A DNA stretch of 64,000 nt, from IMG/VR virus record IMGVR_UViG_3300049617_000342, positions 18,536-82,535 of that record; one strand, written 5' to 3'. This document shows positions 4,021 to 64,000 of this stretch, piece by piece. Position 1 is the first letter of the stretch. Each line of letters starts with the position of its first letter. The position numbers and the translations under genes were made by a program. The DNA is from a virus. Taxonomy: Duplodnaviria > Heunggongvirae > Uroviricota > Caudoviricetes. Under the pieces are notes generated by a model. The model had not been told where the DNA came from. It was given only the letters and a program-made list of their open reading frames with translations, and made no database searches.

Positions 4021-4021
4021 G

Positions 4022-4945: not shown

Positions 4946-5004
4946 TCTCGAGTTGCTCCGTGGGTTTGGTGGCTAGAGTACAAGTAGATTTTACCCCGCT
5001 ACGA

Positions 5005-7990: not shown

Positions 7991-8348
7991 AGTAGTTCGG
8001 TAGTATCGTCCTCGCCTGGTTGGCTAGCTGCTGGGCCGCGTTGACTGGCGCACCCCATCGTTTGAGCAAAAGCAGACCGATCTTACCAAGTATACCCTGG
8101 CGCTTTTCGAAGAACCTCTGGAAAAGATAGAGGATCCAGGACTTCGGCTTGAGGTAGAAGATCAGGCCGAGGTCGCCCTCCCCGTAGAGGCCGTCGACGT
8201 CGAGCCGGGCGTCCGCTATTCCCGGCTGCGTGATGGCGAGCGACCACATGTCGTCGGCTATGGGCATGGAGAACACGCCCATCTCGGCGAGCACCCTGCT
8301 GGCCATGCTCTGCTCGTCAATTAGCGATGAGAGCTTCCGCTCGTCCAA
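7950..8348 (-). CDS. hypothetical protein (132 aa)
   Basis: ORF with balanced composition between the phosphoesterase and Endo VII genes. Confidence 0.35.
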   Translation of the reverse strand: MDERKLSSLIDEQSMASRVLAEMGVFSMPIADDMWSLAITQPGIADARLDVDGLYGEGDLGLIFYLKPKSWILYLFQRFFEKRQGILGKIGLLLLKRWGAPVNAAQQLANQARTILPNYYVRVEFRRKVRSV

Positions 8349-9348: not shown

Positions 9349-10544
9349 GAGGTCTTCTTGTAGACCTCTGCCATCAGGGCCCTCTGGAGCTCTGGCTTGG
9401 CGTTGAGGTCCTCGACCAGGTTGTCGAAGCCGTTCCACTTGACCTCTTGTCCGTCGAGAACCGCTGCCCACCAGGCGTTGTTGACCTTGGGGGGTTCCTT
9501 GTTCGCGATTTCCTTCTTGGTCTGCTCGGAGAAGGGATGGTACACCGCGCCGGTGCCCGTCGCTAGCTTGGCGACCTCTAGGCCCTGGTTGACGATGCCG
9601 GTGTTGTACTTGACCTGGAACTCCGCCGTCCTGAACGGGGAGTCGAGGTTGGCCTTGCTGACCGTGGCCCTGATTGTGTGCCCCTCCTGGATCGAGACCT
9701 CGCTGGACGCCTTGGGCGAGCCGTTGAGGATCATCTGGTCGGAGAAGATCTTGCTGTCCTTGTTGTTGATGCGCTCCACCAGGACCATGTGCTCGCAGAA
9801 GTGCTTGAGCGCCTGGCCGCACGGGATCTTCCACTTGATGCCCTGGTACTCGACCTCGTCCGCGTTCATGTTCTCGTTGACCTGCTGGACGAAGACCGTC
9901 ATGATGTTGTATTGGCGGATCACCGGGAGGATCTCGCGCAAGGCTGGGTTGAGGAACCTGGACAGGTCGCCCATGTCCATCTTCTCCGCGCCGCCCTTGG
10001 CTCCCTGGCTGCCGATCTGGTTGGTGCTGGACATGGAGGTGGCCTTGACTTCCTTTGGCCCCCTGATGCCCTTGATCGAGTCTATTCCGAGGTACTTGAT
10101 CGGAGCGCCCTGCTCTAGCATGTAGAGGAGCCCGGGTCCGCCCGTCTTGCCGTCGCTGCTCTTGAACTTGGGGTCCCTCGAGACTATCCAGTCGAAGATG
10201 TCGTGGATGGTGTTGGCCTGCCTGATCATGTGGCGCTTTGGGTCCACGCCGAGCTTCGCCGCGCGTTCGGGGACTGGTGGCCTGAACTCCGAGCTGATCG
10301 TCACGCCGATCGCGTCGGGGTCGAACCTGTGGAGAGCACCCAGTCCGCACATGGAGAGGAAGGACTTCCCGCCCTGCTCGGGGCCGTAGAGGCAGACCGT
10401 GTACCCCTGGTAGAACCCGCCGCCCATCGCCCAGTTGATGCCGGGGCTGTCGAGCGCGATCTTGGTCCTGGCCGAGACCTCGGAGCCGATGATGTTCTTC
10501 TCGTCTTCCTGGAACATCTCCATCCAGTTCGTTTCTTTAGCCAT
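9345..10544 (-). CDS. uvsX: UvsX/RecA-family recombinase
   Basis: RecA-fold ATPase with Walker A GPEQGGKSF. The likely start is MAKETNWMEMF (AAGGA RBS), 8 codons downstream of the track start. Confidence 0.7.
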   Translation of the reverse strand: MAKETNWMEMFQEDEKNIIGSEVSARTKIALDSPGINWAMGGGFYQGYTVCLYGPEQGGKSFLSMCGLGALHRFDPDAIGVTISSEFRPPVPERAAKLGVDPKRHMIRQANTIHDIFDWIVSRDPKFKSSDGKTGGPGLLYMLEQGAPIKYLGIDSIKGIRGPKEVKATSMSSTNQIGSQGAKGGAEKMDMGDLSRFLNPALREILPVIRQYNIMTVFVQQVNENMNADEVEYQGIKWKIPCGQALKHFCEHMVLVERINNKDSKIFSDQMILNGSPKASSEVSIQEGHTIRATVSKANLDSPFRTAEFQVKYNTGIVNQGLEVAKLATGTGAVYHPFSEQTKKEIANKEPPKVNNAWWAAVLDGQEVKWNGFDNLVEDLNAKPELQRALMAEVYKKTS

Positions 10545-14618: not shown

Positions 14619-17600
14619 CTATAGCTCCACTAGTCTCGAGATGCTGAGGGACCACAGTCCGGGCGTCCTGCTCGGCTTTACTCTACCCCTGCATATCAGG
14701 ATCTTGTTTCCCGACGGCTCCCTCTCGCCGTGGCGCCTCATGTTGTCGCGCGTGGAGGGCCAGATGACCCCCTCGACCTTGTCGCCGGCGTTGACGATGC
14801 TCAGGCGCAGCGCCTTGACCTTCTCCTTGGTCTTCTTGTCGGTGTACTCGAAGTCCTCCTTGGACTCGAGCAGCCCGGAGAACACCACCTCGCGGTCCTT
14901 CTTCCCCATGCCGGAGTCCCAGAACAGCGCCAGGTCCTTGGTGCTCCTGGTGGAGACGAACACGCCGCCGCTGTCGCGGTACGTGTCGATGCCGGACTCG
15001 TCGTAGAGGATGTGGCTCTCCATGAGCGGGCGGAACATCTCGTGCACGTCCATCCTGTAGATCGAGAGGAGGGACATGCGCTTGATCTCAAGCTCCAGGC
15101 CGTCGAAGCTGAACTTCAGGGCCAGCTCGTCCTCTATCTGTTCGTTCTGGCACTTGCTACCCTTGGGCCCGGGCTTCGCGCCGCTGGTGACGATGTAGGC
15201 CTCGACCGCGTCCCTTAGGTCCCTGCCGGTCTTGCCCTCGCCGAGCTTGAGGCCGGAGAGCTTCTTCAGGTAGAGGTACTCGCGGAAGAGGTCCTTCTCC
15301 GACTTGCCAGGCTCTATCAGGGAGAACGCGCCTACGAGTATGAGCTTCTCGAATATGCCCTCGTTGCAGGCCTTCCTGTCGACCCTCTCGAAGAAGTCCT
15401 GCAGGCTGCTGAACTGGGCCTCCGCCATTATCTCGGACGTCTCCTGCGAGAAGCCTCCCTGCGCGATGTCGTTGGCGCGATCGTCTATGGCCTTCTGTAT
15501 GGCCTTGCACGCCGCGGCGCCGACGCCCTTGACCATCCACAGGGGCGTGTGGACCTTGCCGTCGGGCCTGGCCTCGAACTCGTCCATGGGCCCGTTGACG
15601 TGCGGGAGAACCAGCATGTCCTTTAGGGTGCGCGCGTAGCCCTTCTCGCGGATGTCCTCCTCCTTGCAGTTCTGGAGGACGGCCGTCCACCACTCCTTGG
15701 GGAAGTGGTGCTTGAGGAACGCGCACGCATACGCGATGTTCCCGTAGCTGGCGGAGTGCGCGCGGTTGAAGGAGTACTTCGCGCTGGCCAGGCAGAGGTT
15801 GATGAAGACCTGAGACTGCTCCTCGGTCCACCCGCGCTCGCTGAGGCGGCGGCGAAGCTCGGGTATGAGGTTCTCCATGTCCTGCTTCTTCTTCTTCCCG
15901 ACCATCTCCCTGATCGTGTCGGCCTCCTCCTCGGAGTAGCCCGCGAGGTGCTGGAACATCAGCTGGAGCTGCTCCTGGTAGACGGCGACGCCGTAGGTGT
16001 CCTTGAGGATCGGCTCCATGCCGGGGTGCGCGTAGGTGATCGGGACCCGGCCGTTCTTCCGCTTGACGTAGGCGTCGGCCATGGTAAGCTTGTGGAACAG
16101 CGGCCTGCCCTCGTCGTCCACCGCCTGGACCTTGGGTGCCACCATTATGGGCCTGTCGGGGTCGTCCTGGTCTATCTCGGCAAGCAGCGGGCCCGGCCGG
16201 ATGATGGCCACGATGACGGAGCAGTCCTCCTTGCGGGTGGGCTTGATCCGCTTGGTCCAGCCGGTCATGAGGGCGCTGTTCATCTGGAACACGGACTCCG
16301 TCTTGCCCTCCTGCAGGTCCCTGAACACTCCCTCGTCCTCCGGGAGCGTGTAGATGTTGTGGACCGTGCCGTCCGGCATGCAGACCTCCTCGATCGAGCG
16401 CTCGCCCAGCCAGAGGTCGAACTCCTTCTCGCCGATCTTCATCTTCTCCTTCCACACGTTGTAGCCCAGGGACTTCTGGACCAGCCTTATGCAGTTGGAT
16501 ATGTCGAGCAGGGTCGTCACGCCGAGGATGTCGAACTTTATCAGCCCGGCCTTCTCGGCCGCGCTGAAGCCCTGGGGAGGAGCCGTGTACTGGGTGCACG
16601 TGTGCCCGCTGACGTCGCACAGGGGAGCGCTCTCGTAGATGGGCCTGTCGCTGATGAAGTACGCCGACGCATGGCGGCCGACGCTCCTCGGTATGCCGAG
16701 CATCTTGGTGAACATCGTCCTGAGGTCCTTGGTGGGGTCCTCGTCGTGGTACTTGACCAGGAACGCCTGGAGGGCCTCGTCGGTGTAGAGGTATCCCTCG
16801 TGCTCCACGCCGTCCTTGTCGGTGTAGCCCTCCAGGAACTCCCTGTCCTTGGTGCCCATCGGGGTGTTGGGGATGTTCTTGGTTATAACCTCGACCTCCG
16901 GCATCAGCGCCTCTAGCCGCTCAACCAGCTGGTCCCTCTTGGGTCCCCTGGGTGTGCGGTCTATCTCGTTCTCTAGGGGGTTGACGTAGAGGACCCTGAA
17001 GGCGTCCTTGAGGGCGCTCTTGAGCTTCATCGTGCCGTGGGTGGTGGCCTGGGCAAAGTTCTCCCCGTAGGTCTCCGAGAGCTTGGCCAGCAATGGCTTG
17101 CGGTTACCCATGTCCCAGTCTATGTCGGGGAACTTCCTGCGCTTGATACGGCCAGGAGAGAGGAACCTGGAGAACGGAAGCTTGTACTCGAACGGGTCGA
17201 GGTGCGTGATCTTGAGGAGGTAGCACAGGAGCGACCCTGCCCCGGAGCCCCGTCCGGGCGCGCTGAGGATGGAGTGGGCCCTGGTCCAGCTCTGCCACTG
17301 CTCCATGAACAGGAAGTACCGGGCGAAGTCCTGGACGCCGTTGTCGCAGATGATCTCCATCTCCATCTGGAGTCGCTCGAGCCAATCGGGGTCGTCCCAC
17401 TTCATTCGCCCGTGCTCCTCGATCTTCCGCATTATGAGGCCCTTGAGCGCCTCGCGCTCGTCGGCGGCCGCGTCCCTGAGGTCCTGCGGGATCTCTATGA
17501 TGGGCTGGTGGTACTCGTCCTTGATGGTGAGTGCCTTGGCCATCTCCACGATCTGGTGGTTGCTCTCCACCGCCTCGACGAAGATCTTCCGGTTCTCCTC

Positions 17601-18530
17601 GTCGTCCCCGTAGTTCTCGCTCCAGTGGTCCCAGGCGTCCTGGGTGGTCATCATGTGGTACGAGTTGTGGAAGTGCCAGCCGTCGGGGTCGCCGTTCTTG
17701 AGCAGCATGTCCTGGACCGGCTTCTCGTCCGGCTTGACGAAGTGGCTGTCGACCGTCAGGATCAGGGGAAGGTTGTTGGCCCGGGCTATCTCGATGTTCT
17801 TGAGGTTGCAGGCCTTCTGGAGGTCGCCGTCTGGGCTGAAGTCGGTGCACTCGTTCGGCGTGAAGACCTTCTCCTTGCGGTCCCAGTCGTGCGTGCAGTT
17901 GTGCGGCATCAGCTCGACGAACAGGCGGCCCGCGTAGGCCGACATGAGCCTCTCGAGGTTCCGCTGGGCGCCGTCGTTCTCGCCGTTCAGGAGCGCCTTG
18001 TTGACGGCCCCGATTAGACAGCCGCTGCCCAGCACTAGCCCCTCGTTGTACTGGACCAGCTCGTCGAAGGTTATGCGGGGCTTCACCTGGCCGAAGCGCT
18101 TGATGACTCGGGCGTACATGCCCTCGACGTTGCGGGTGACCTTGTCCTTGGTTACAGCCTTCTGGGTGTAGATCTCGCTCTTGTCGAAGGACAGGGAGCC
18201 GAGCTTCAGCAGGTTGCGGTAGCCGGCCTCGTTGACCGCCCAGGCGGTGACGTGGTAGTACTCGTAGGCCTTGCCGCTGAACTTGTAGTCCGCGTCCGGC
18301 GCCACGTAGAACTCGACGCCGGGTATGCCCACTATGCCGGCCTCGCCGGCGCTCTTGTACATCTCGAGGGCGCCGATCATCCAGCCGTGGTCGGTGACCG
18401 CCATTCCTGGCGCCCCGTTGTCCTTGCACCACTGGATGTACTCGGAGATGGTCGACGCCCCGTCGAGGACGGAGTAGACGGTGTGGGAGTGAAGCGGACA
18501 TAGCTGCAGCTTCGTCGGTGATTCTGACAT
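14619..18530 (-). CDS. dnaE: DNA polymerase III alpha subunit (DnaE family) with N-terminal PHP domain
   Basis: ~1303 aa. The N-terminus LHSHTVYSVLDGASTI…VTDHG matches PHP-domain motifs, and the length and architecture match DnaE. The start was moved to the internal ATG (MSESPTKL), because the track start would overlap the tRNA. Confidence 0.85.
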   Translation of the reverse strand: MSESPTKLQLCPLHSHTVYSVLDGASTISEYIQWCKDNGAPGMAVTDHGWMIGALEMYKSAGEAGIVGIPGVEFYVAPDADYKFSGKAYEYYHVTAWAVNEAGYRNLLKLGSLSFDKSEIYTQKAVTKDKVTRNVEGMYARVIKRFGQVKPRITFDELVQYNEGLVLGSGCLIGAVNKALLNGENDGAQRNLERLMSAYAGRLFVELMPHNCTHDWDRKEKVFTPNECTDFSPDGDLQKACNLKNIEIARANNLPLILTVDSHFVKPDEKPVQDMLLKNGDPDGWHFHNSYHMMTTQDAWDHWSENYGDDEENRKIFVEAVESNHQIVEMAKALTIKDEYHQPIIEIPQDLRDAAADEREALKGLIMRKIEEHGRMKWDDPDWLERLQMEMEIICDNGVQDFARYFLFMEQWQSWTRAHSILSAPGRGSGAGSLLCYLLKITHLDPFEYKLPFSRFLSPGRIKRRKFPDIDWDMGNRKPLLAKLSETYGENFAQATTHGTMKLKSALKDAFRVLYVNPLENEIDRTPRGPKRDQLVERLEALMPEVEVITKNIPNTPMGTKDREFLEGYTDKDGVEHEGYLYTDEALQAFLVKYHDEDPTKDLRTMFTKMLGIPRSVGRHASAYFISDRPIYESAPLCDVSGHTCTQYTAPPQGFSAAEKAGLIKFDILGVTTLLDISNCIRLVQKSLGYNVWKEKMKIGEKEFDLWLGERSIEEVCMPDGTVHNIYTLPEDEGVFRDLQEGKTESVFQMNSALMTGWTKRIKPTRKEDCSVIVAIIRPGPLLAEIDQDDPDRPIMVAPKVQAVDDEGRPLFHKLTMADAYVKRKNGRVPITYAHPGMEPILKDTYGVAVYQEQLQLMFQHLAGYSEEEADTIREMVGKKKKQDMENLIPELRRRLSERGWTEEQSQVFINLCLASAKYSFNRAHSASYGNIAYACAFLKHHFPKEWWTAVLQNCKEEDIREKGYARTLKDMLVLPHVNGPMDEFEARPDGKVHTPLWMVKGVGAAACKAIQKAIDDRANDIAQGGFSQETSEIMAEAQFSSLQDFFERVDRKACNEGIFEKLILVGAFSLIEPGKSEKDLFREYLYLKKLSGLKLGEGKTGRDLRDAVEAYIVTSGAKPGPKGSKCQNEQIEDELALKFSFDGLELEIKRMSLLSIYRMDVHEMFRPLMESHILYDESGIDTYRDSGGVFVSTRSTKDLALFWDSGMGKKDREVVFSGLLESKEDFEYTDKKTKEKVKALRLSIVNAGDKVEGVIWPSTRDNMRRHGEREPSGNKILICRGRVKPSRTPGLWSLSISRLVEL

Positions 18531-18556
18531 TCGCCTATATCGTACCAAGGTTGGAG

Positions 18557-18632
18557 TGGTAGCCCCACCCCGAGTCGAACGGGGATCATCCATTTAGGAA
18601 ACGGAAGCTCTGTCCACTTAAGCTATGGGGCC
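18557..18632 (-). tRNA. tRNA-Arg (anticodon CCU)
   Basis: Cloverleaf folded by hand on the reverse complement. Acceptor stem GGCCCCA/TGGGGCT (G1·U72), D-stem GCTT/GAGC, anticodon stem TCCGT/ATGGA with loop TTCCTAA, T-arm CCCCG-TTCGACT-CGGGG, and an encoded CCA. Coordinates ±1. Confidence 0.75.
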
Positions 18633-52848: not shown

Positions 52849-53148
52849 ATGAGCGAGCAGCCACAGCAGCAGTACCCGTTCCTGTTCACGGCGGCCGAGG
52901 TGAACCTCATCCTCAAGGGCCTGGAGGAGCTTCCGCACAAGCTGAGCGCGGGCCTCATAGGGCAAATCCTGAGCGGCGCGAAGGCCATAGAGGCCAAGGC
53001 GGCGGAGGCGGCCGAGAACCTGAAGAAGTCGAAGGCGGAGTACGCTGACAGGCGGGACGCGAAGGCGGAGGGGCCGAAGGTGGAGGCCAAGCCGGAGCAG
53101 CCCAAGAAGTCGTCCGGGCCGAAGCTGGCCAAGTCCCTCCAGAGCTAG
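52849..53148 (+). CDS. hypothetical protein (99 aa), Ala/Lys/Glu-rich C-terminus
   Basis: Last gene of the rightward block. Confidence 0.4.
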   Translation: MSEQPQQQYPFLFTAAEVNLILKGLEELPHKLSAGLIGQILSGAKAIEAKAAEAAENLKKSKAEYADRRDAKAEGPKVEAKPEQPKKSSGPKLAKSLQS

Positions 53149-53390
53149 GGCACGAAGGGCGGCTTGGCGGGCCACACGATGGTCGTGGGGTCCGTCTTGT
53201 TCGGGTCCATGCACGTCCTGAGCGCCTGGATGTACTGCAGAAGCTGCACGTAGAGGGGCTGCGCTAGCGTCGTCTGTATGTGCAGGGCCTGCTCGTCGAG
53301 GTGCCGGGCCCTCATCCACTCGCACTGTATTATCAGCCCGTTCCTCTTGGCCCTGGCCATGGCCATCCCGTTCTGGTTCCTAGCTGGCAT
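53145..53390 (-). CDS. hypothetical protein (81 aa)
   Basis: Its stop overlaps the stop of the convergent plus-strand gene (cTAGg read on both strands). Confidence 0.4.
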   Translation of the reverse strand: MPARNQNGMAMARAKRNGLIIQCEWMRARHLDEQALHIQTTLAQPLYVQLLQYIQALRTCMDPNKTDPTTIVWPAKPPFVP

Positions 53391-53399
53391 TCAACCCTC

Positions 53400-56300
53400 C
53401 TATGATATCGGTATCGGGTTCGTGAAGATCGAGTAAGTAGAGGCGGTGAACTCGTCCGACCCGTTCAAGGGGGTCAGGCCGCCGGTGGTCCAGGACTGGT
53501 ATCCGAAGTTGATGTACCCCACGCTGGGTTTCAGGAGCACGGTGAAGTTGACCGCCACGTTGTCCCCCTTGGCCATGTAGCCGCAAAGCTCCACCGGGCT
53601 GAAGACCTTGGTCGCCTGCGAGGTGTAGCCGGGCGGCAGCGACACCTGGGCCTCGCTGGCGCTCGTGGTGGCCACCGCCATGGTTCCCTTTATCAGTATC
53701 GAGTCCGTCCCGTCGAACTTGTACCAGAAGCTGGAGGACGACACGGTGATCCCCGAGAAGGTCGGGGTGTACGGCGTCCACACGGTCGGCCCAATGGCCT
53801 TGGCCCCGCTTAGAAGCTCGATCGAGAAGGACGAGTTGATCGGGGCCGTGCCGCCGTTGACGTTGTGGGTGGTGTCGATCCAGATGGCCACCGTGTCGCC
53901 CTGGTTCAGCTGGACCTCGGCCGTGCCGGACGCGGCCGCGGAGCCTATGATCTGGCAGAGCGTTAGGTACGCGGCGCCGTTGACCGCGAGGAACACGTCG
54001 CTGTTCGAGCTGCTCACGCTCAGCGCGCAGCTCACCCTGTAGGTGCCCTTGAACGGGGCGGTGTATAGGCCCGTGCCGGTGGCGTAGGCGTTGTCGGTGT
54101 CGAACGAGACCGTGTCGAACGTTATCGGGCTGTTCGCGCCTATGTTGGTGGTCGTGTTCATGTAGGCGGACGCCGACACCAGACGGCCTATGCCGGTGGA
54201 CACGCTCGGGGCCTGCGCCGCCAGGGTTATCGAGACGGTGGGTATGTAGCCGACGTCGGTGCCCGTCAGGGCGCTGTAGTTGAGGGTGGTGGACGTGTCG
54301 TAGACGATCGTGGCCACGTCGCCGGCGTTTAGGAACACCTGCAGGGTGCCGCTGGTTATGGCGGACTGGTTGTGCGTGAGGCGGCCCCCGACGTTGACGC
54401 CGTTGACGTTCACGTACGTGTCGGCCACGGTGGTGGGGAAGAAGCAGGTCGCCTGGAAGTCGTAGTAGCCGCTGACCGGGGCCGTGAACTGGCCGTTGGT
54501 GGCGTTGTACGCGCTGTTGGTGTCGTAGTAGGTGAACGGGAACACGATGGGCACCCCGGCCGTCACCGAGAGGGTGCCGCTGCTGGCCGGGTTGACCCCG
54601 AACTTGGCGGTGACGCCGGGCATCTGTGCGCCCGTCGGTGCTCCGAACGAGCCCAGCGGCTTGGCGAACAGCTTGCAGCCGACGACGGCCTGGTCGCCTC
54701 GGTTGGTGCCGCCGCCGACGTAGACGGTGTAGGTGTGCGTGCCGGCGGGCGGGCTGTCTATGAAGCTGTAGCCCGAGGCCGGCGTCATCAGGATGTTTAT
54801 GGAGATGTTGTCCTGCATCTGCTGGTAGCCGCCGCCCACGTAGGCGCCGTCCCTGTAGAAGCTGACGAAGGCGTAGCTCACCGCCGGCGTGGAGTCGGTG
54901 GCTATGTAGCCGGCCCCGTTGCCGCTGCCGTCGCTGCACAGGCCCACCAGTATGTCCCCGCCGTTGGTCTCCAGGGTGACCGATATGGGTGTGAGTCCGG
55001 TGTGGTCCATGACCTGCGTCGGGCCGGCGCCGGAGAACGAGAAGGTCCCGGTGGACAGGCTCTTGACGAGCGTGGAGACCGCGTCCTGCTGCGCCCCGTA
55101 GAGGCCCTTGATGGGCACCTTGAAGCTGGCGTACCAGTTGGCCCCGCTCTCGGCGAAGTTCAGGGCGTTCATCTTGCTGAACGCGCCGCTCGCTGTGGCG
55201 GCCGTGAAGTAGACGTTGTTGACGTCCGAGCCGTCGAAGAACGGGTAGGTCTGCCACTCGGCGGTGTTTATGCCGGCGGCGGTGCCGCTGGTCGTCAGAG
55301 AGTTGGCGAAGCCGTCGAGGGTCTCTCCCAGGCTGCTTAGCTTTGTGGCGTCCGCCTGGAGCCCGGCCGGGAGGCCGAGGGCCATCGGGGCCGCGGTCGA
55401 GCTGCCGACCAGCATGGACACCCTGAACTCCATGGTGTCGCCCACGATCCTGCTGAACGTCTGGAGGTTGCTGTACGCCCCGAAGCTGGCCGACGGCACG
55501 ACCTGCCTGGTGCTGACCCACGGGGTGACCGGCGCGGCCATGTTGCCGTTGAGCCCGACGCCCTCGGCGAACATGTAGAAGTTGGCGATGCCTCCCCTGA
55601 TGTAGAGGGTCCCGCCCGTGTTGGCCCCCTGGAGGTCGAACACGTAGGTCTTGCCGGCGACTAGGCTGTAGACGGACTGGCACCAGGCCGTGTCTATGAT
55701 GCCGCCCGTCGTCGCGTAGACCTCGCCCTGGCTCTCCTGGAGGAGGGCCGCTCCACCGCTGGTGTTCCACACCCTCACCGCGGCCTCCTGCGAGCTGCCG
55801 GTCTGGTAGAGGGAGACGTTGCTGTAGACCTTGTAGGTCCCGCTGATCACCGGCGTGAAGGTGAACGCCGGGCTGGTGCTGAAGGTCTGGAAGCCGCCGC
55901 TGATGCCCGCGCTCTGCGTCGTGACGGGACTGGAGGCGTAGAAGGCGAAGGCGCTGCCCTGCATGGCGCCGTTGGGGCCGTAGGTGCCGCTGGGCAGGTA
56001 GACGCTGCTGACCCACTGGGTCGTTATGTTGGTCGAGAACGCTATGTTCGCGACCCACGTCAGCACGTCGTTGGCGTTGAGCTTAAGGGCCATCACGAGG
56101 CCCTGGGCCCCCAGGGTGCCGGTGTTGTCTATTATCTCGCTGGTGGCGGAGCCGTTGACGTAGAGCTGCACCTGCTTGGTGCCGCCCGTGTAGTTGCCGT
56201 CCCAGCCCACGAGGTAGTAGCCGGAGTAGGGAACGACGTAGTGGCCGCTGGCGTTGTCGTAGGCGCTGTTGCTGTCGTACTCGGTGGTCCCCAGGGCTAT

Positions 56301-57533
56301 GGGGTTCCCCGCGGACCAGCTGCCGGACCCGCTGGCCTTGAAGTTGACCGGGAAGTTCTGGTTGGCCTGTATCAGGCCGACGCCCTCGGCGAACATGTAG
56401 AACTGCGCGCCGTCGCCCCTCAGGTACGCGTTGCCGGTGCCGCTCGCGACTATCCCCTGTATGTCGAAGACGTAGGGCTGCCCGCCGACGAGCTGGTAGG
56501 TGCTCTGGATGGTGACGCTGCTTATGAACGCGCCGCTGGAGTTGACGTACGCCTGCCCCTGGCTCTCCGCCACGAGCGTCGCCCCGCCGCTGGTGTTCCA
56601 CACCCTCGCCTTGACCTGGTTGTTCGCGGTGTCGGCCTCCAGGGGCACGGTCGAGTAGACCTTGTAGATCCCGCTGACCGCCGGCGTGAACGTGAACGCG
56701 GGGCTGTTGCTGAACGTCGTGAACGGGCTGGTGTAGGGTATCGCGGAGCTTATGACCGTGACCGGATTCGAGTCGTAGATGGCGAACGAGCTGCTGCCCG
56801 TGTTAAGCGTGCCGTTGAGCCCGATGCCCTCGGCGAACATGACGAACGGGATGTTCGAGCCGTCGGCGGTTATGGTGCCGTTCCCGATGTTCTTGCCCTG
56901 CAAGTCGAAGACGTAGCTCTGGCCCGCGACCAGCGTGTAGACGCTCTGGCACGACGCCGAGCCCGCGCGCCCGCTGGGCACGAGGTAAGGGTTGAAGCCG
57001 CCCTGGCTCTCGGCGAGGAGGGTCGCGGAGCCGCCGGTGTTGAATATCCTGACCACGCCCCAGGGGTCGGCGCCGGAGTTGCCGTCGAGCGTGGCCGTGC
57101 AGTAGACCTTGTAGGTGCCGCTTATGGTGGGGGTGAACGTGAGCGCGGGGCTGTTGTCGAAGGTGGTGAACGAGCCGCCGACCACGCTGCTGGCCGTGGT
57201 GACCTGCGAGGACTGGTACGTGGCGAAGGCCGCGCTGCCGCTGGCGAGCAGGGGCGTCTCGACGCCGGCCGCGGTCTGCCTGTAGGGAAGGTCGTCGTTC
57301 TTGAAGTAGATCTGGTCGTGCCCCGTGGAGGGCGGGCTGGGCGTGGCGATCTGCGCGAGGTCTATGGGGTTGGGCGAGCTGCCGCCCATGCCGACCCAGG
57401 AGCCGTTCTGGTAGGCCTGGAACAGACCCAGCGTGGTGTCGTAGTAGAAGTCTCCGTTCCTCGGGCTGGAGGGGGGAGAGGGGAGCTGCCCTAGGTTGAC
57501 GCCCGCGGAGAAATCCTGTACGTTCCTAGCCAT
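53400..57533 (-). CDS. giant tail-fibre-like protein with tandem C1q/TNF-like domains
   Basis: 1377 aa, S/T/G/N/V-rich. Three tandem ~150-aa repeats (…GTYKVY…VRIFNTGG…LLAESQG…YVFDLQG…). At least three C1q-signature segments (e.g. YYDTNSAYNATNGQFTAPVSGYYDFQATCFF). The N-terminal module is shared with the next two genes. Confidence 0.6.
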   Translation of the reverse strand: MARNVQDFSAGVNLGQLPSPPSSPRNGDFYYDTTLGLFQAYQNGSWVGMGGSSPNPIDLAQIATPSPPSTGHDQIYFKNDDLPYRQTAAGVETPLLASGSAAFATYQSSQVTTASSVVGGSFTTFDNSPALTFTPTISGTYKVYCTATLDGNSGADPWGVVRIFNTGGSATLLAESQGGFNPYLVPSGRAGSASCQSVYTLVAGQSYVFDLQGKNIGNGTITADGSNIPFVMFAEGIGLNGTLNTGSSSFAIYDSNPVTVISSAIPYTSPFTTFSNSPAFTFTPAVSGIYKVYSTVPLEADTANNQVKARVWNTSGGATLVAESQGQAYVNSSGAFISSVTIQSTYQLVGGQPYVFDIQGIVASGTGNAYLRGDGAQFYMFAEGVGLIQANQNFPVNFKASGSGSWSAGNPIALGTTEYDSNSAYDNASGHYVVPYSGYYLVGWDGNYTGGTKQVQLYVNGSATSEIIDNTGTLGAQGLVMALKLNANDVLTWVANIAFSTNITTQWVSSVYLPSGTYGPNGAMQGSAFAFYASSPVTTQSAGISGGFQTFSTSPAFTFTPVISGTYKVYSNVSLYQTGSSQEAAVRVWNTSGGAALLQESQGEVYATTGGIIDTAWCQSVYSLVAGKTYVFDLQGANTGGTLYIRGGIANFYMFAEGVGLNGNMAAPVTPWVSTRQVVPSASFGAYSNLQTFSRIVGDTMEFRVSMLVGSSTAAPMALGLPAGLQADATKLSSLGETLDGFANSLTTSGTAAGINTAEWQTYPFFDGSDVNNVYFTAATASGAFSKMNALNFAESGANWYASFKVPIKGLYGAQQDAVSTLVKSLSTGTFSFSGAGPTQVMDHTGLTPISVTLETNGGDILVGLCSDGSGNGAGYIATDSTPAVSYAFVSFYRDGAYVGGGYQQMQDNISINILMTPASGYSFIDSPPAGTHTYTVYVGGGTNRGDQAVVGCKLFAKPLGSFGAPTGAQMPGVTAKFGVNPASSGTLSVTAGVPIVFPFTYYDTNSAYNATNGQFTAPVSGYYDFQATCFFPTTVADTYVNVNGVNVGGRLTHNQSAITSGTLQVFLNAGDVATIVYDTSTTLNYSALTGTDVGYIPTVSITLAAQAPSVSTGIGRLVSASAYMNTTTNIGANSPITFDTVSFDTDNAYATGTGLYTAPFKGTYRVSCALSVSSSNSDVFLAVNGAAYLTLCQIIGSAAASGTAEVQLNQGDTVAIWIDTTHNVNGGTAPINSSFSIELLSGAKAIGPTVWTPYTPTFSGITVSSSSFWYKFDGTDSILIKGTMAVATTSASEAQVSLPPGYTSQATKVFSPVELCGYMAKGDNVAVNFTVLLKPSVGYINFGYQSWTTGGLTPLNGSDEFTASTYSIFTNPIPIS

Positions 57534-57539
57534 GGCTTC

Positions 57540-59609
57540 CTAGGCCAGCGGCCTGGCGTAGAGGACCGTGTACTCTATGGTGGAGCTGGCCGCGTTCCCG
57601 CCGTCCTGGTTCTGGTTGTAGACCTGTACCGAGTAGGTGTGCGTCCCGACGGGGGGCGTGTCTATGAACCTGACCGACGCCGGGGTCCACGCGGCCGTCT
57701 CGTAGCCGGTGTTGTTGCCCGTCATCATGGCCTGGACCGATATGCAGACGCCGTCCCTGTAGAGCTGCACGTAGACCTGGGGCCAGCAGTTCACGGGCGC
57801 CCCTGTCCTGGCGGTCCTTATCCTTCCAGGGTTGGTGGTGCCGTCGTCCATGAAGCCTATCTCCACGTCGCCGCCGTTGCACACGACGGTGGAGGTGAGC
57901 GGCACCGCCGAGAGGTCCGTTACGGGGACGAGGCTCGTGCTGAAGCCGAAGCCGGAGCCCGTGCTGTTCGACTTCTTGATCCTGGAGACCAGGGACGCGG
58001 GCACGGCGGAGGGGGATATGCCCGCTATGATGGTGGCCACGAGCACGGAGTAGTAGACGTTGACGCCCGACGGTGCAGTCGGCGCGCTGCTGGACACGTA
58101 CCACGCGTTGGCCGTGTAGGTGTGCGTCCCGGCCGGCGGCGTGTCGGTGAACGAGAAGCTGCCTGGCGGGAAGCCGGTGATGCCGACCGCTATGTTGTTC
58201 TGCTGGCCGGCGAGCATGGTGCATATGGGTGTCCCGTCCCTGTAGATCTGGATGGCCGCGTAGGCCACGAGGCCGGTGTTCCTGTAGACCTGGATCATGG
58301 ACTCGTTGGTTCCGCCGCTGCCCGGGTCGGGCTCGAAGCCTATCTTGACGGCCTGCCCCTGCGTGGTGATCACGCACTGTATGGGGTTGACGCCGCCGCT
58401 GTCGGTGATGGGCACGCCGGGCGAGGCCGTGTTGTTGGTGCTGAAGGCCCCGGTGGGCAGGCTCTTGATCGGTATGTTGAGGCCCACGTCCATGGCCGCG
58501 GGCGCCTGGAGCACGACCGACACCTGGTTGCCGCTGGCGCTGCCGTCGGTGGTGAAGGTGTTGCCCACCGTGACGGTCAGGTAGTCCCCGACCTTCATGT
58601 TGACGTGCGTCGCTATCCTGGTCGATATGGCGACGATGCCGGGCTGGCCGCCGTTGGCCCAGATGTCCTCGGCTATGGCGCTGCCGTTCAGGTTGAGGAA
58701 CAGCTCGTTCTGGCCGTCGCTGCGGCTGGAGCCGGTGTACTGCGAGACGTTGACCGCGTAGACGCCCGCCACGGGCGCGACGAACTGCCACGCGCTGCCG
58801 GGGTTGTTGACCGCGTTGTAGTTGTCGATGACCTTGTTCTCGAAGAAGAGCTGGCCGGTCGGGCCCTGGACGGTGGTGCTGTTGTAGATGGCGGCCACTA
58901 TCGGGCTGGCCTGGGGTATCGCGGGCACGGGGCTTATGGACACGTTGGCGAAGTCGAACGTCCAGGCGAGCGCGTTCGTGGTGGCGACGTGCCAGATCAC
59001 CCTGTAGTGCGTGCTGTTGTAGTTGGTCTGGAAGTAGCCGGTGAACGTGGCCGGCGTGGCGACGCCCCCGATGAACACGTTGGGCGTGACGGGGATGAGG
59101 ACCGCGTTCGTTATGTCGTACACCCACATCTCGATGTCACTGTCGCTGCCGAAGCTGCCGTCGCTGAGCTGGAAGTTGGCGCTGGCTTGGTACTGGAAGC
59201 TGACCTTGATGACGCCCGGGGAGAAGGCGAGGTCGCTCTGGAAGTCGTACGAGAAGCCCTGGCCCTGCGCGTTGACCGCGCTCTTGGCGAGCACGCCCAT
59301 GGTGTGGCCGACCAGCGGGTTGGTCTGGGTGCTCGTGAGGGCCAGGCCGGTGGCCGAGCCGCCCGTCCCCGTCGTCGGGGTGTGGACGGCGCCGTTGTTG
59401 TAGAGGTTGTATCCGTTGGTCGAGCCCACGCTGGGGTTGGTGTCGTAGTTGATGGTCCCGGACCCGCCAAGGGGGCCCCAGGAGCCGTTCTGGTAGCCGA
59501 GGAAGCCCTGGATCGAGTCGAAGTACACGTCCCCGTCCACGGGGTTGGACGGCATGGTGTACCCGCGGAACGTTATGCCCTTCTTAACCAGGAAGAAATC
59601 GTCTGCCAA
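57540..59609 (-). CDS. tail-fibre-like protein (689 aa)
   Basis: The N-terminal module matches its neighbours (…GDVYFDSIQGFLGYQNGSWGPLGG). The rest is beta-rich, G/S/T/N-rich. Confidence 0.5.
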   Translation of the reverse strand: MADDFFLVKKGITFRGYTMPSNPVDGDVYFDSIQGFLGYQNGSWGPLGGSGTINYDTNPSVGSTNGYNLYNNGAVHTPTTGTGGSATGLALTSTQTNPLVGHTMGVLAKSAVNAQGQGFSYDFQSDLAFSPGVIKVSFQYQASANFQLSDGSFGSDSDIEMWVYDITNAVLIPVTPNVFIGGVATPATFTGYFQTNYNSTHYRVIWHVATTNALAWTFDFANVSISPVPAIPQASPIVAAIYNSTTVQGPTGQLFFENKVIDNYNAVNNPGSAWQFVAPVAGVYAVNVSQYTGSSRSDGQNELFLNLNGSAIAEDIWANGGQPGIVAISTRIATHVNMKVGDYLTVTVGNTFTTDGSASGNQVSVVLQAPAAMDVGLNIPIKSLPTGAFSTNNTASPGVPITDSGGVNPIQCVITTQGQAVKIGFEPDPGSGGTNESMIQVYRNTGLVAYAAIQIYRDGTPICTMLAGQQNNIAVGITGFPPGSFSFTDTPPAGTHTYTANAWYVSSSAPTAPSGVNVYYSVLVATIIAGISPSAVPASLVSRIKKSNSTGSGFGFSTSLVPVTDLSAVPLTSTVVCNGGDVEIGFMDDGTTNPGRIRTARTGAPVNCWPQVYVQLYRDGVCISVQAMMTGNNTGYETAAWTPASVRFIDTPPVGTHTYSVQVYNQNQDGGNAASSTIEYTVLYARPLA

Positions 59610-59647
59610 GGTGCCTCCTCCGCTTCACTTTCCGCGGAGTGCTGGGG

Positions 59648-61576
59648 TTATCGCAGGAACCGCTTGATGAAGATCCTCAGGGTCCTGTCGGTCGTGTTGG
59701 TGCTCGTGAACTGGAGGTTCGCGCTGCCCGCGCTGTAGGCGAGGGAGAACTGGACGCCGATGTCGCCAGAGTCGTTGTAGGTGTCGGTTATGGACGGTAT
59801 CGACCCGTCGCTGTTGGCCACGCAGGAGAGCCTCCCCTGCCTGACGATCGTCGGGCTGCCGCCGTCGGTCATGTAGTAGTCGGCGATGAAGCCGCCGTAG
59901 CTCGCGACCGCGAACGAGGTGGACGCGTCGACGTTGGCCACGCCGCTGGTGTTGTTCGCCAGGGTGATGTCGGCGTACTGCTCCTCGAGGTAGCTGCCCG
60001 GGGTGGGCCCGAAGAGGAGCTTGTTCGCCACGAGCTGCGGGCTGGTCGTGCTGCTGTCCGCGAGCGCGGCCGCGTTGTTGCTGAGTATGACCCTGTTCGC
60101 GTCCGGGGCCAGGAGCTTGCTGATCTGGATGGCCGCGGTGGCGTTGACCTTGGAGTCGGTGATGGCGCCGTTGGGGATGTAGAGCTGGTCGCTGCCGTTG
60201 ATGCCCACGGTCGAGCCGTCGACCTTGACGGAGAGCTTGGTGCCGCTGCCGCCGGCGAGGGCGCCGGTGGACGAGAGGGCCGAGGACGCGATCTGCGTCT
60301 CCGTGATCCCCGCGTTGAGGACGTAGATCTCGTTGCCGCCGTTGAGGCCGATCGTGGAGTTGTCGTAGAGGACGTTGAACTGGCCGCTCGACAGGTTGAG
60401 GCCGGCGCCGGCGGTGTACGCCCCGGCGGAGCTGAACTGTACGAAGGTGATGGCGGTGGTGTCCATCGTGCCGCCGGGCATGGACGTGCAGACCCAGCCG
60501 ATGTCGGCGTTGACGGAGCCGGTCTGGACGAAGACCGCCGCGGCGGGCACCTCGACCCAGAGGACCATGTCGGGGGCGCGCGTGAGGACGTAGGCGTTGG
60601 AGCCGCCGCCGACCGTGCTGACGTACCAGATGCCGTTGTAGGGGGCGTTGCCGCCGGCCTCGTTCTTGACGAGGATGCGGTCGTTGAGGACGGTGGTGTG
60701 GCCGTCGATGACCAGGGCGCCCACGGCGTTGGCCGTCAGGGTGTCGCCGGTTCCCTCCGGCCCGCCGCCGGCGGCGAAGGTGTAGGCGGGGAGGGTGGTG
60801 GTGGTCGCGACCACTACCGCGTCCTTCCAGTGCACGCCGTTTATGGCGTTGTCGACGTAGCCCTTGGTGGCGGCCTGGCTGGCCGAGCTGAGGCTGGTCG
60901 GGGTGGCCAGGTTGGTGATCATCCCGCCGTTCATGTTCAGCGTTCCGCTGAGGCTCGCGGCCGCTGCGGTCAGGGTGCCCGTCAGGGTGGGCGAGGCGGA
61001 GAACACCAGGTTGCCGGTGCCGGTGGTTCCCGAGGCGCCGGAGAGGTAGCCGAGCTGTGTCGGGGTGACGGCGCTCGATACGAGGACCTTGCCGGCGCCG
61101 AGGTACGGCACGGTGCTGGCGGTGAGCTGGTTGAACTCGACGCCGCTGGTGGACCAGCTGAGCTGTATCGCGGCCGCGCCGTCCTTGAGGGTCCTGTTCT
61201 GCCAGTCGAGGGAGACGAAGCCGCCGGAGTCGTCGAGGACCCTGCTGTAGGCCCCGACCGAGACCGAGCCGGCGCTGTCCAGGAGGCTCTGGATGTTGCC
61301 GGAGAGCCAGCTGAACGTCTGGGTGCCGACCTTGAAGGTGGCGTCCGTCCCGGGCGTCATGTCCTGGTTGACCGCCACCGGGCTGCTGAGGTTGCTTAGG
61401 AAGGTGTTGGCCGAGCTTCCGCCCGTGCCGATGCTGGTCCACCCGCCGTTCTGGTAGATCCTGAACGTGTTCGCGCTGGTGCTGTAGTAGATCTCGCCGT
61501 TGTAGGCCGTGCCCGGGTCGGCCGACAGACTTCCGACGACTATTGGGCTCCTGCCTAGCTGTAGCTCGTTTGCCAT
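59648..61576 (-). CDS. tail-fibre-like protein (642 aa)
   Basis: N-terminal module (…GEIYYSTSANTFRIYQNGGWTSIGTGG). Internal fibre motif …SSASQAATKGYVDNAI…, the classic P…AATKxYVD tail-fibre signature. Confidence 0.55.
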   Translation of the reverse strand: MANELQLGRSPIVVGSLSADPGTAYNGEIYYSTSANTFRIYQNGGWTSIGTGGSSANTFLSNLSSPVAVNQDMTPGTDATFKVGTQTFSWLSGNIQSLLDSAGSVSVGAYSRVLDDSGGFVSLDWQNRTLKDGAAAIQLSWSTSGVEFNQLTASTVPYLGAGKVLVSSAVTPTQLGYLSGASGTTGTGNLVFSASPTLTGTLTAAAASLSGTLNMNGGMITNLATPTSLSSASQAATKGYVDNAINGVHWKDAVVVATTTTLPAYTFAAGGGPEGTGDTLTANAVGALVIDGHTTVLNDRILVKNEAGGNAPYNGIWYVSTVGGGSNAYVLTRAPDMVLWVEVPAAAVFVQTGSVNADIGWVCTSMPGGTMDTTAITFVQFSSAGAYTAGAGLNLSSGQFNVLYDNSTIGLNGGNEIYVLNAGITETQIASSALSSTGALAGGSGTKLSVKVDGSTVGINGSDQLYIPNGAITDSKVNATAAIQISKLLAPDANRVILSNNAAALADSSTTSPQLVANKLLFGPTPGSYLEEQYADITLANNTSGVANVDASTSFAVASYGGFIADYYMTDGGSPTIVRQGRLSCVANSDGSIPSITDTYNDSGDIGVQFSLAYSAGSANLQFTSTNTTDRTLRIFIKRFLR

Positions 61577-61589
61577 TCCCCTCTAACCC

Positions 61590-61937
61590 CTAGCTGATGT
61601 TTCTCACGGCGTACCAGAACTGCCCGCCGGACCCGGTGGCCGTGCTGATGTACTGGACCAGGATGTTGGGGCCGCTGACGACGCCGGACAGGACCACGCC
61701 CGTGCTGCTCTGGGACGTGCTGTCGTTCTCGAATGATATTATCGTCCCGTTCGAGGAGACGAAGAGCCTGCCCACCTGGGTGGCGCCGGCCCTGACCATG
61801 GAGTACTCTATGACCACGTTCAGGGGGCTGCCCGCCGGGAGGGTGAACAGGGTGACGGGCGAGGACTGGTTGTCCAGGACCGCCAGGGGCCCCGTCACCG
61901 TCTGGACGACGTAGTCGACTCCCGGGAACAGCGGCAT
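61590..61937 (-). CDS. small beta-rich structural protein (115 aa)
   Basis: ORF between the fibre genes. Confidence 0.4.
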   Translation of the reverse strand: MPLFPGVDYVVQTVTGPLAVLDNQSSPVTLFTLPAGSPLNVVIEYSMVRAGATQVGRLFVSSNGTIISFENDSTSQSSTGVVLSGVVSGPNILVQYISTATGSGGQFWYAVRNIS

Positions 61938-61938
61938 C

Positions 61939-64000
61939 CTAGCTCGCCTCCTCTATCTCGATGGACAGCGGCGAGACCTGGAGGTTGCTTGAGAACTCCA
62001 GGGTGTTGTTGGAGATCTCGTTGTAGTACTGGTCCAGGGTGACGCCCGCGATGTACCTCGGGACCCTCTGGCCGTTGACGTACGGCACCAGGGCGCCCCT
62101 GACGGTGCCGGCGAACGCGCCCACGGTGTAGGTGAAGTTCAGCTGGACCCTGGTCTTCCCGAGGACGTTGAACGTGGGCATGCAGTTGTTCGGGGTGCCC
62201 GAGTTGTCGGACATGACGAACGCGCTGGCGCCGGCTCCGGGGAGCACGGGGGCGTAGCTGGGCGTGCCCGTGGGGCCGGCGGTGCCGTCGGACCACCGCC
62301 TGGTCATGTACTTGAGGGTGGCGTTGGTCCCGGAGTTGTCGAGGGTGTAGATCAGGTTGACGTTGCCGCCCGAGAGGCTGGCGGAGAACGTGAGGCCCGT
62401 GGCCCCGGTGTAGCTGCCGCCGCTGGAGACCTGCGCCGTGGCCCCGTCGTTGACGAGCCAGGCCGTGCCCATCTCCTTGACCCCGTTCCTGAGGATGGAG
62501 AACTCCACGACGATGTTCTCGCTGCCCAGGGCGGTGACCGAGAACACGTTGGCGGTGGTGTTGTTGAGGAGCGTGCTGGTGACCGGGGCCGCCTGCTCCA
62601 TGAAGTCGACGCCGTTGAAGTACCTGAACGTCCTGTTGACTAGCCACGTGGTCCCGTTGAACTCGGTCAGCTGGTCGTGGAACTGGGTGCCCTGCTGGAC
62701 CACGAGGAGGTCCCCGCCGGCCGGGTCGTAGGGGCTGGCGAAGTCGGGCTGGGCGGTCCAGGCTATGGAGCCGGGCGTGGTGGTGCCGGCCAGGCCGCTG
62801 TCGTCCAGGACGGCGTGGTACACCTGGCCGCTGGTGAGGGTGTTGGTGCCGCCGAACGTGAACGTGTAGACGGTAGGCGTCGTGGTGAGGGTGGCGCTGT
62901 TGAGGGGCGCGCTGGTCTCGATCAGGGTGCCGGGCTGGCCCGCGCTGTCCGTGTAGACCTTGACGTACAGGTTCCCGCTCGGGGGCGGCGACAGGGTGGC
63001 GATGGAGAGCTGGAACTGGACGTCGTCCAGGAAGGCCGTGAAGCCGGCGGTGAACGTCTGGCCGAGGCTGACCGTGTTGAGCGTCTCGCTCTCGGTGGTG
63101 TTGGTCGAGAGGTTCTGCGCGAACACGACGGGGCTGGAGCCGCTGTTGAGCGCCGCGAACACCAGGCCCTGGTTGGTCTGGGGCGTCCACGTGGAGCCGC
63201 TGTCCGTCGAGAGGCTGAACTCTGGGGGCGACGTCGCGGGGACCTCGCCCATGCCGACCGCGATGTAGTGCAGGCCGCCGAGGCCGACTATATTCGTGAA
63301 GTCTATGACGAACCAGTACTGGGTGCCGCCCGTGAGCGCGGCGGTCAGGCTGGCCAGCTGCCACTGGGTGACGTTGCTGCTGTTGATCGTGCTGCCGGCC
63401 ACGGACACCGTCGCGCCCGGCACCAGGGTGCCCGGCTGGCCGGCGTTGTCGGTGAAGATGCTCAGCGTGTACGAGCCCGTGTAGCTGTTTAAGCTGCCCA
63501 GCTCGTAGAGCAGGGCCGTCAGGGTCTCGCTGGTCGCGGGCGTGAACGGCTGGGCCACCTGCGTCGTGGTGGCGGTGGCCTGGTAGTACGTGGTGTGGGT
63601 GTTGTTGAAGCACCCGGGGGCGCTGGACGATATGAGGCCCGAGCCCGTGGTGACCGCGAACAGGAGGTTGGCGTTGTTGCCGCTGTCCTGGATCGGCGTC
63701 CAGGTGGACCCGCTGTTCGAGCTGATGTTGGCCACGGCGTTGGTGATGAAGTTGTAGTCCTGGAACACCAGGACGAACCCGCTCCCGAACACCACGTTGC
63801 TGGCGTCCACGACCAGGTGGTAGGTCTGCCCGCTGGTCAGGGTGCCGCTGGAGAACGCGACGGTGACCGGGCTGGGGTTGTAGGGCGTGGTGGTGGCGAA
63901 GGGCAGCGAGGTCGCTAGGACCTGCACCACGTTCGTCACGTTCGTGCCGCTCGGTAGGCCGCCGCTGTCCGTCTGGATGCTGACGTTCAGGTAGCCGCCC
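61939..64000 (-). CDS. large repeat-containing structural protein, 5'-truncated by window edge
   Basis: The reading frame stays open from 63939 to the window end (…GGYLNVSIQTDSGGLPSGTNVTNVVQV…). The track 'start' is an internal GTG. There are two internal repeats around …D(N/S)AGQPGTL…. Confidence 0.5.
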   Translation of the reverse strand, partial: GGYLNVSIQTDSGGLPSGTNVTNVVQVLATSLPFATTTPYNPSPVTVAFSSGTLTSGQTYHLVVDASNVVFGSGFVLVFQDYNFITNAVANISSNSGSTWTPIQDSGNNANLLFAVTTGSGLISSSAPGCFNNTHTTYYQATATTTQVAQPFTPATSETLTALLYELGSLNSYTGSYTLSIFTDNAGQPGTLVPGATVSVAGSTINSSNVTQWQLASLTAALTGGTQYWFVIDFTNIVGLGGLHYIAVGMGEVPATSPPEFSLSTDSGSTWTPQTNQGLVFAALNSGSSPVVFAQNLSTNTTESETLNTVSLGQTFTAGFTAFLDDVQFQLSIATLSPPPSGNLYVKVYTDSAGQPGTLIETSAPLNSATLTTTPTVYTFTFGGTNTLTSGQVYHAVLDDSGLAGTTTPGSIAWTAQPDFASPYDPAGGDLLVVQQGTQFHDQLTEFNGTTWLVNRTFRYFNGVDFMEQAAPVTSTLLNNTTANVFSVTALGSENIVVEFSILRNGVKEMGTAWLVNDGATAQVSSGGSYTGATGLTFSASLSGGNVNLIYTLDNSGTNATLKYMTRRWSDGTAGPTGTPSYAPVLPGAGASAFVMSDNSGTPNNCMPTFNVLGKTRVQLNFTYTVGAFAGTVRGALVPYVNGQRVPRYIAGVTLDQYYNEISNNTLEFSSNLQVSPLSIEIEEAS

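Follow-up and report, generated by a model that had tools for sequence, protein, structure and literature searches.

A repeat unit shared by the N-termini of three consecutive tail-fibre genes in an uncultured large phage

The fibre locus and its shared N-terminal module

The sequence analysed here, hereafter called the window, is a stretch of 64,000 nucleotides (nt) from a tailed phage (IMG/VR record IMGVR_UViG_3300049617_000342, positions 18,536 to 82,535). Its right end carries a minus-strand operon with the order giant tail protein, U115, fibre A, fibre B, fibre C and assembly chaperone. It represents the distal tail-fibre cassette in the genome of a large, GC-rich phage that has not been cultured. 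Fibres A, B and C begin with a common N-terminal module, which we find to be a copy of a widespread fibre repeat and which probably falls into two classes according to the position of the gene in the cassette. An initial annotation of the window had described three consecutive giant fibre genes at this locus. The three consecutive open reading frames (ORFs) exist as annotated (Table 1) and all three are fibre genes, but only C can be called giant.

The N-termini of the three fibres align over 56 columns, 14 of which are invariant (M1, A2, P, G, Y, F, YQNG, W and GGS), and all three carry the motif P..P..G(D/E).Y(Y/F)..(5-7)..F/L..YQNG.W....GG. Pairwise BLASTP of the N-termini gave E-values of 2e-9 for A and C, 2e-6 for B and C, and 0.01 for A and B. 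A regular expression for the motif, applied to the six-frame translation of the 64 kb, found three sites only, which are those of A, B and C. Moreover, an independent hidden Markov model (HMM), trained on 17 N-termini from other phages and on no sequence of the window, recognised A, B and C with 72, 61 and 47 bits (E = 5e-22, 1.5e-18 and 3e-14). Among the 324 ORFs of the window this model matched nothing besides A, B and C, and 3000 shuffled N-termini reached at most 11.8 bits. These searches demonstrate that the module is real and under selection. The shared motif reported in the initial annotation is therefore borne out by the alignment, the regular expression and the independent HMM, and the failure that it had allowed for, a similarity without statistical significance, did not occur. 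The length that it gave, approximately 45 amino acids (aa), should be corrected to 52-55 aa.

Repeat family and predicted fold of the module

The repeat family to which the module belongs was defined by a profile (A4) and an exhaustive HMM search at E <= 1e-3. It contains 6,710 protein clusters at this threshold and 1,005 at E <= 1e-10, with up to 20 stretches in one protein, and it is very large and essentially unannotated. Word-indexed protein searches with short module alignments returned only 0 and 6 short fragments. The highest-scoring proteins are 1,000-5,000 aa long and contain up to 20 copies of the unit, and at nine loci (L004-L010, L013 and L014) the unit (…T.ER.AL.P.NGM.IYNTT.NKFQGYQNGGW…) is found at the very C-terminus or as internal repeats. 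By profile comparison, the module is one copy of a widespread fibre repeat of approximately 45 aa and not a dedicated adaptor. Because the unit is often internal or C-terminal in other proteins, it cannot by itself specify docking, and the notion of a specialised docking module, which the initial annotation had put forward, is not upheld for a unit that is mostly internal.

Several repeat-rich relatives have Pfam matches: P0046 matches DUF7360 (4.5e-8), P0035 matches Mtd_N (8e-13), and the A-type fibre of locus L003 matches DUF2793 (1.8e-10). These short fibre motifs have the same P..P..G-x-aromatic...G.W flavour as the module, and the window modules match neither DUF7360 (PF24059), DUF2793 (PF10983) nor Mtd_N (PF18454), even at E = 10. 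An Mtd_N beta-prism was considered as an identity for the module and was not supported, given the lack of a Pfam match and an hhalign probability of 0.5% against the N-terminus of Bordetella phage Mtd.

The only solved relative in an hmmsearch across the Protein Data Bank (PDB) was the N-terminal anchor domain of CBA120 TSP4, with marginal E-values of 0.05-0.07. An hhalign comparison of the repeat profile A5 with the Kuttervirus TSP4 N-terminus gave a probability of 94.7% and an E-value of 6e-8 over 26 columns (residues 53-79), and the core of the module can be aligned with the sheet segment of TSP4, VRYNPDSDEFEGYYENGGWLSLGGGG. In an AlphaFold model of residues 1-100 of fibre C, strands are predicted at residues 29-32, 37-42 and 45-49 with a predicted local distance difference test (pLDDT) score of 86-90, followed by GGSS, and the best Foldseek matches of this model are CBA120 TSP3 and TSP4. 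A Gly-rich hinge directly follows the module in each fibre (GTGGSS in A, LGGSGT in B and MGGSSP in C). The core of the module, with its predicted three-stranded sheet, thus appears to be related to the beta-prism II part of the TSP4 anchor domain. The initial annotation had proposed T4 gp34 and gp12 and the N-terminal domain of T7 gp17 for comparison, and none of these gave a sequence match in the Pfam and PDB profile searches. The T7 gp17 N-domain (PF03906) was not matched by the full proteins at E = 0.1 or by the N-termini at E = 10, and T4 gp34 and gp12 were absent, at the sequence level, from a profile search of all PDB chain sequences at E <= 10.

Two positional classes of the module

Consensus sequences of the module were derived from 42 aligned N-termini of multi-fibre loci. 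The A-type consensus reads m..N..k.sgpi.vGsLaaDPs.p.nG.iYYNtt, and the B/C-type consensus reads MAdNffki.kGi.L.pq.saPsnP.nGDiYYDsTln.F..Y.nGaW.slgg. The first 12 residues of the B/C-type are as conserved as the core of the sheet (top-residue frequency 0.65 vs 0.63, n = 30), and many fibres with unrelated distal parts start exactly with the module unit. Among A, B and C, the modules are 27-39% identical, whereas identities of 52-75% are found with the fibres in the corresponding positions of other phages (75% for B and 52% for A, both to L001, and 53-60% for C). The modules therefore appear to form two old positional classes. Because the positional counterparts are closer than the paralogs, distinct conserved attachment sites fit these data better than interchangeable docking does.

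In the DNA of the modules, the longest identical stretch is 13 nt, and one 41-nt family is 68-80% identical. This negligible conservation indicates that the module has not been conserved as a recombination substrate, and a DNA-level recombination cassette was accordingly ruled out.

Distal parts of the fibres

That A, B and C encode fibres or receptor-binding proteins and lie distally in the tail operon is supported by the C1q-like heads of C, the tail-fibre domain of A and the chaperone gene that follows C. In a tblastn search, the central domain of A was 34-44% identical to tail fibre genes of Limnohabitans, Methylophilales, Pelagibacter, Ralstonia and cyanophages. Fibre C matches PF00386 in three stretches (E = 8e-21, 75 bits against a cut-off of 23.7) and weakly matches the NC1 head of collagen X (1gr3, E = 0.0024). 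The first of its C1q-like domains (approximately residues 400-515) lies between the second and third repeats of approximately 145 aa. The 81-aa ORF, which lies 9 nt downstream of C, matches PF16778 with an E-value of 6.4e-8 (32.8 bits against a cut-off of 26.6).

The C1q/TNF-like domains of C span positions 53823-56336 on the minus strand, and many B/C-type fibres of other phages likewise end in C1q-like domains. C1q heads thus appear to be the common receptor-binding tip in this group of phages.

According to the initial annotation, the three proteins are unrelated beyond their N-termini. This is not the case, because B and C share a domain of approximately 150 aa as well as C1q-like domains, and A and C can be aligned up to approximately residue 105. 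The two copies of the 150-aa domain in B (residues 381-529 and 540-689) match residues 794-960 of C with E-values of 1e-12 to 9e-17. This domain, with its conserved YRDG...PPxGTHTY motif, has no match in Pfam, PHROGs or the PDB. In addition, residues 239-311 of B weakly resemble a C1q-like domain of C.

The N-terminus is probably the virion-proximal end of the fibres. In C, the C1q heads and the repeats are distal; in many phages a conserved N-terminus is combined with variable distal parts, with 1-4 module genes per locus; and elsewhere the cassette follows tape-measure-like or distal-tail-like genes, or genes for Baseplate_J and a sheath initiator.

The U115-like domain and the gene order

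A second domain recurs at this locus. It is a beta-sandwich of approximately 110 aa that occurs as the stand-alone protein U115, as a domain inside the giant tail protein and as the C-terminal domain of fibre A (Table 1). The A-type fibre of L001 ends in an orthologous copy (E = 4e-13). The last 114 aa of the giant protein in the window were tried as a second, degenerate copy and rejected (hhalign probability 0.5%). A model of U115 (pLDDT 80) is an eight-stranded sandwich, for which the best solved fold is T4 gp9, with generic jelly-rolls scoring nearly as well. U115-like loci comprise the window, L001-L003, L011, L015, L020-L024 and L026-L056. In two small proteins, P0160 and P0162, a collagen-like Gly-X-Y stretch is joined to a U115-like domain at the C-terminus, the arrangement of a fibre that bears a globular head.

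At other loci, one or two U115-like domains end the large protein that precedes the module genes. Among loci fetched via module proteins, one order recurs: a large protein with two U115-like domains at its end is followed by an A-type fibre, which carries the module as well as a U115-like domain at its C-terminus, and then by a B/C-type fibre. The converse test used loci fetched via the U115-like domain alone, which gave 31 contigs, 27 of them informative and several of them near-duplicates. At least one module gene was located downstream on the same strand in 25 of these 27 contigs, directly adjacent in 18, and each locus contained 1-4 module genes. Furthermore, the A-type fibre directly precedes another module gene in 11 of 11 distinct contigs. 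The cassette as a whole, from a tail protein ending in the U115-like domain through an A-type fibre and B/C-type fibres to a chaperone, is present in approximately 30 contigs of uncultured viruses, and the 50,697 deposited phage genomes contain no instance of it.

Features and genomic context

Table 1. Features of the fibre locus, listed from the right edge of the window leftwards
Feature	Positions	Strand	Extent	Basis or remark
Giant tail protein gene, 3′ part	61939..64000	minus		ORF continues past the right edge of the window
U115-like domain of the giant protein	62287..62625	minus	residues 439-551 of the visible 666	beta-sandwich, ~110 aa; domain HMM, E = 9e-47
U115	61590..61937	minus	115 aa	stand-alone copy of the U115-like domain; candidate socket
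Fibre A	59648..61576	minus	642 aa	A-type; N-module, widespread tail-fibre domain, C-terminal U115-like domain
N-module of A	61412..61576	minus	aa 1-55	alignment, independent HMM, comparison of positional classes
Central domain of A	60287..60937	minus	aa 214-430	phrog_30390, E = 4e-25; tblastn
U115-like domain of A	59660..59974	minus	aa 535-639	C-terminal; domain HMM, E = 2.9e-6
Fibre B	57540..59609	minus	689 aa	TTG start, with GGAGGAGG before it; full-length identity of 59% to a 687-aa protein of L001
N-module of B	59454..59609	minus	aa 1-52	B/C-type; alignment, independent HMM, class comparison
Two tandem ~150-aa domains of B	57543..58469	minus	aa 381-529 and 540-689	PPxGTHTY motif
Fibre C	53400..57533	minus	1377 aa	ORF call, domain matches, repeats, L001 ortholog
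N-module of C	57372..57533	minus	aa 1-54	B/C-type; alignment, independent HMM, predicted strands; followed by GGSS
Three ~145-aa repeats of C	55527..57233	minus	aa 101-243, 248-396 and 527-669	48-54% identical
Domain of C homologous to both B domains	54654..55154	minus	aa 794-960	
Two further C1q-like domains of C	53823..54641	minus	aa ~965-1090 and ~1106-1237	PF00386
Tail (fibre) assembly chaperone	53145..53390	minus	81 aa	PF16778 (Phage_tail_APC); last gene of the operon

The reading frame of the giant gene is open up to base 63999, and the 666 aa listed for it represent the C-terminal part of the protein. On L019, another assembly of the same phage, the protein has at least 948 aa. Its ortholog on L001, a 171-kb viral contig, has 2287 aa, and the part in the window is 50% identical to residues 1632-2283 of this ortholog. 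The N-terminal 350 aa of the L001 ortholog are common to the large pre-fibre proteins of L003 and L015, and when the N-terminal 430 aa of the large tail proteins were used in a profile search of the PDB, only spurious beta-trefoil matches resulted. The L001 protein (gene 2770-9633) also contains an Ice_binding-like domain at residues 427-614 (PF11999, E = 8e-33). L001 encodes the giant protein, a 116-aa protein and three fibres in the same order as the window, with 40-59% identity. In the window, a single base lies between the stop codon of the giant gene and the ATG of U115, and a Shine-Dalgarno site lies 4-8 nt upstream of the start codon of each of A, B and C. The interval of the initial annotation ends just before the chaperone ORF, and beyond that ORF plus-strand genes converge with the operon.

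A 93,434-bp metagenomic contig encodes the same proteins, every one of which is annotated as a hypothetical protein. Among deposited phages, none resembled the fibre region at the DNA level, and neither DNA nor protein searches turned up a relative of this region, fibre C or the U115-like domain; the module consensus gave marginal matches only. Pfam and PHROGs assigned no function to the module, U115, B or the giant protein. A scan of bacterial genomes for hosts returned only three matches, all in metagenome-assembled genomes, which point to no host. The sole clue to kinship or host is an ORF for a DnaE-type DNA polymerase III alpha subunit (14619-18593, minus strand, 1324 aa), the best match of which, at 33% identity, is that of Myxococcus phage Mx1. 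A tRNA-Arg(CCT) gene (18557-18632, minus strand) overlaps the 5′ end of this ORF as called, and the true start of the polymerase probably lies further downstream. The AT skew changes sign at approximately 33.5 kb and 53.3 kb, exactly where transcription changes its direction (minus, plus and minus blocks), and the GC content is 65-67% in the fibre genes versus approximately 61-62% in the rest of the window.

Discussion

We propose, with moderate confidence, that the N-terminal module is a stub that serves for trimerisation of the fibre and for its joining to the tail, that several different fibres are present on each virion, and that A and the B/C pair occupy different hierarchical sites. Each fibre begins with one unit of the widespread repeat, and the unit consists of a conserved hydrophobic leader (MAdNFFKi.kGi.L in the B/C-type), a Pro-rich turn (aPsnP.nGD) and a three-stranded beta-meander (iYYDsTl..F..Y.nG.W) that would pack in the trimer into a beta-prism II, as in the TSP4 anchor domain. 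A Gly-rich hinge follows the unit. The N-terminal copy, as the virion-proximal end, would nucleate trimerisation and would be the stub by which each of the several fibres of one virion joins the tail, with A on the tail protein and then B and C on further sites. Because the A-type and B/C-type modules form separate conserved classes, the fibres are probably placed at different hierarchical sites and not interchangeable at a single one.

We infer a multi-fibre tail with conserved N-terminal ends for attachment or trimerisation and with shuffled distal parts, and the initial annotation was right in this spirit. Its view of the locus as a set of receptor-binding proteins can be retained for the nature of the genes, their conserved N-terminus and their variable distal parts, and is not supported for interchangeability, for the unrelatedness of the remaining sequence and for a dedicated docking module.

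Several observations weigh against our proposal. In other proteins the unit is mainly an internal element, with as many as 20 copies, or forms the extreme C-terminus, and relatives of fibre A carry two extra internal copies in addition to the N-terminal unit. The link to TSP4 spans 26 columns only and is marginal in the database-wide search (E = 0.05). The Foldseek E-values exceed 0.3, and residues 1-20 of the model, with a pLDDT of 62-70, are of low confidence. No gp10-like XD domain, T7 gp17 N-domain or other known adaptor was detected in Pfam, PHROGs or the PDB. Moreover, the searches of deposited phages gave no cultured relative.

A sharper form of the same explanation assigns a partner to the module. 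The U115-like jelly-rolls would be sockets for trimers of the N-module, with A seated on the tail protein and with B and C seated on the C-terminal domain of A, on U115 or on both, and a branched or serial compound fibre would result. The linkage of the U115-like domain to module genes in gene order makes such a hierarchy of plugs and sockets an attractive hypothesis. However, the large proteins are homologous, so the linkage may reflect simple inheritance. The domain counts are inconsistent, and simple rules of socket-to-plug stoichiometry failed across the loci. The U115-like domain also ends collagen-like proteins, as a head domain would, and locus L016 has no U115-like domain. We regard this form of the explanation as possible but doubtful. 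The same tentative standing applies to its extension to a broad uncultured phage clade, represented by contigs of 26-172 kb, that would build hierarchical branched or serial multi-fibre organelles from two uncharacterised parts, a gp9-like socket and a two-class beta-prism plug, with a plug gene after each socket gene. The socket would be C-terminal in the tail-tip protein and in an adaptor fibre, and would also exist as the free 115-aa protein.

It is somewhat less probable that the N-terminal unit is a generic shaft repeat and nothing else. It would then be the first structural repeat or the trimerisation nucleus of each fibre, attachment would be specified by something else, and the sharing of the unit would reflect common shaft ancestry. 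The size of the repeat family is consistent with this explanation, and among the 144 best-scoring proteins with a length of at least 200 aa, only 19 have the unit within their first 25 residues, in a ranking that is biased towards multi-copy proteins. Internal copies are present in the A-like proteins P0040, P0060 and P0080 and tandem copies in P0071 and P0128, and positions 8-17, which belong to the putative leader, occur in some internal repeats. However, the N-terminal versions form positional classes that are conserved across very different phages, the first 12 residues included. They invariably begin at residues 1-5 of the protein and are tightly linked to the candidate partner domain. 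Furthermore, the unit falls inside the baseplate anchor domain in the only solved relative.

The explanation favoured in the initial annotation, taken literally, treats A, B and C as interchangeable receptor-binding proteins, with a single docking site on the virion that they share or for which they compete, and is in our opinion unlikely. The motif is common to all three fibres, and loci L003 and L051 each contain three paralogous B/C-type fibres, the N-termini of which are 53-69% identical within one genome. In the window, however, each module is closer to its positional counterparts in other phages than to its neighbours, the A-type consensus is unlike that of the B/C-type, and no DNA repeats capable of driving the exchange of cassettes are present. 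A chance or compositional similarity, or mis-called start codons, can be dismissed as an origin of the module, because despite the weak pairwise score of A and B the motif search, the independent profile and the shuffled controls agree, Shine-Dalgarno sites precede all three genes, and the orthologs have the same N-termini.

The closest structural parallel to the module is the TSP4 anchor domain of Escherichia phage CBA120 and other Kuttervirus phages (PDB 7REJ, 7RFO and 7RFV), which, like the module, is N-terminal and combines a three-stranded sheet with a Gly-rich hinge. In that domain an intertwined triple beta-helix precedes three-stranded sheets, one per chain, that form a trimeric beta-prism II, with a linker at Gly76-79 after them, and deletion of the first 12-16 residues of TSP4 abolishes trimerisation (PMC8825819). 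CBA120 also resembles the window phage in having several receptor-binding proteins. However, in CBA120 only TSP4 has the anchor domain, whereas all three fibres carry the unit here. In addition, TSP4 continues into the gp10-like branching domains XD1-XD3, none of which was detected in A, B or C, and the detectable similarity between TSP4 and the module is limited to approximately 26 residues.

The principle of attachment is textbook knowledge. Branched systems of receptor-binding proteins have been described in the Klebsiella phages KP32, K11 and KP34, in Escherichia coli phage G7C (gp63.1 and gp66) and in the Ackermannviridae (TSP1-4), with adjacent receptor-binding genes, short conserved N-termini and variable distal domains, as in the window, and with hierarchical assembly in which one protein bears the site for the next (PMC6872550, PMC13352976, PMC11414711). 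In such systems the primary protein has T4 gp10-like branching domains close to its N-terminus. The candidate partner proposed here, which is linked to the module in gene order, is instead a C-terminal jelly-roll without a sequence match to gp10-like domains. T4 itself provides a second parallel in gp9, the connector of the long tail fibre and the best solved fold for the U115 model, with the N-terminus of gp34. The latter combines triple beta-helix and beta-prism II elements (PMC8825819), which resemble the module. A compound fibre of plugs and sockets would be comparable to T4 gp9-gp34 or to BppU-BppL of TP901-1. The module, its candidate partner domain and the cassette itself are uncharacterised and are absent from the cultured phages in the collection searched.

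The comparison with TSP4 gives the module an anchor at the level of the fold, namely the beta-prism II unit in the anchor domain of this tailspike. Where one virion carries multiple receptor-binding proteins, these set the host range, and conserved N-terminal attachment modules are the handles by which receptor-binding proteins are swapped in phage engineering. If the pairing of the N-module with the U115-like domain holds, it would constitute a new modular attachment pair. If the hierarchical arrangement is true, the number and order of the fibres could be read directly from the genome. The recurrent cassette, which is recognisable in genome sequences, would help to annotate the hypothetical fibre genes of metagenomic phages.

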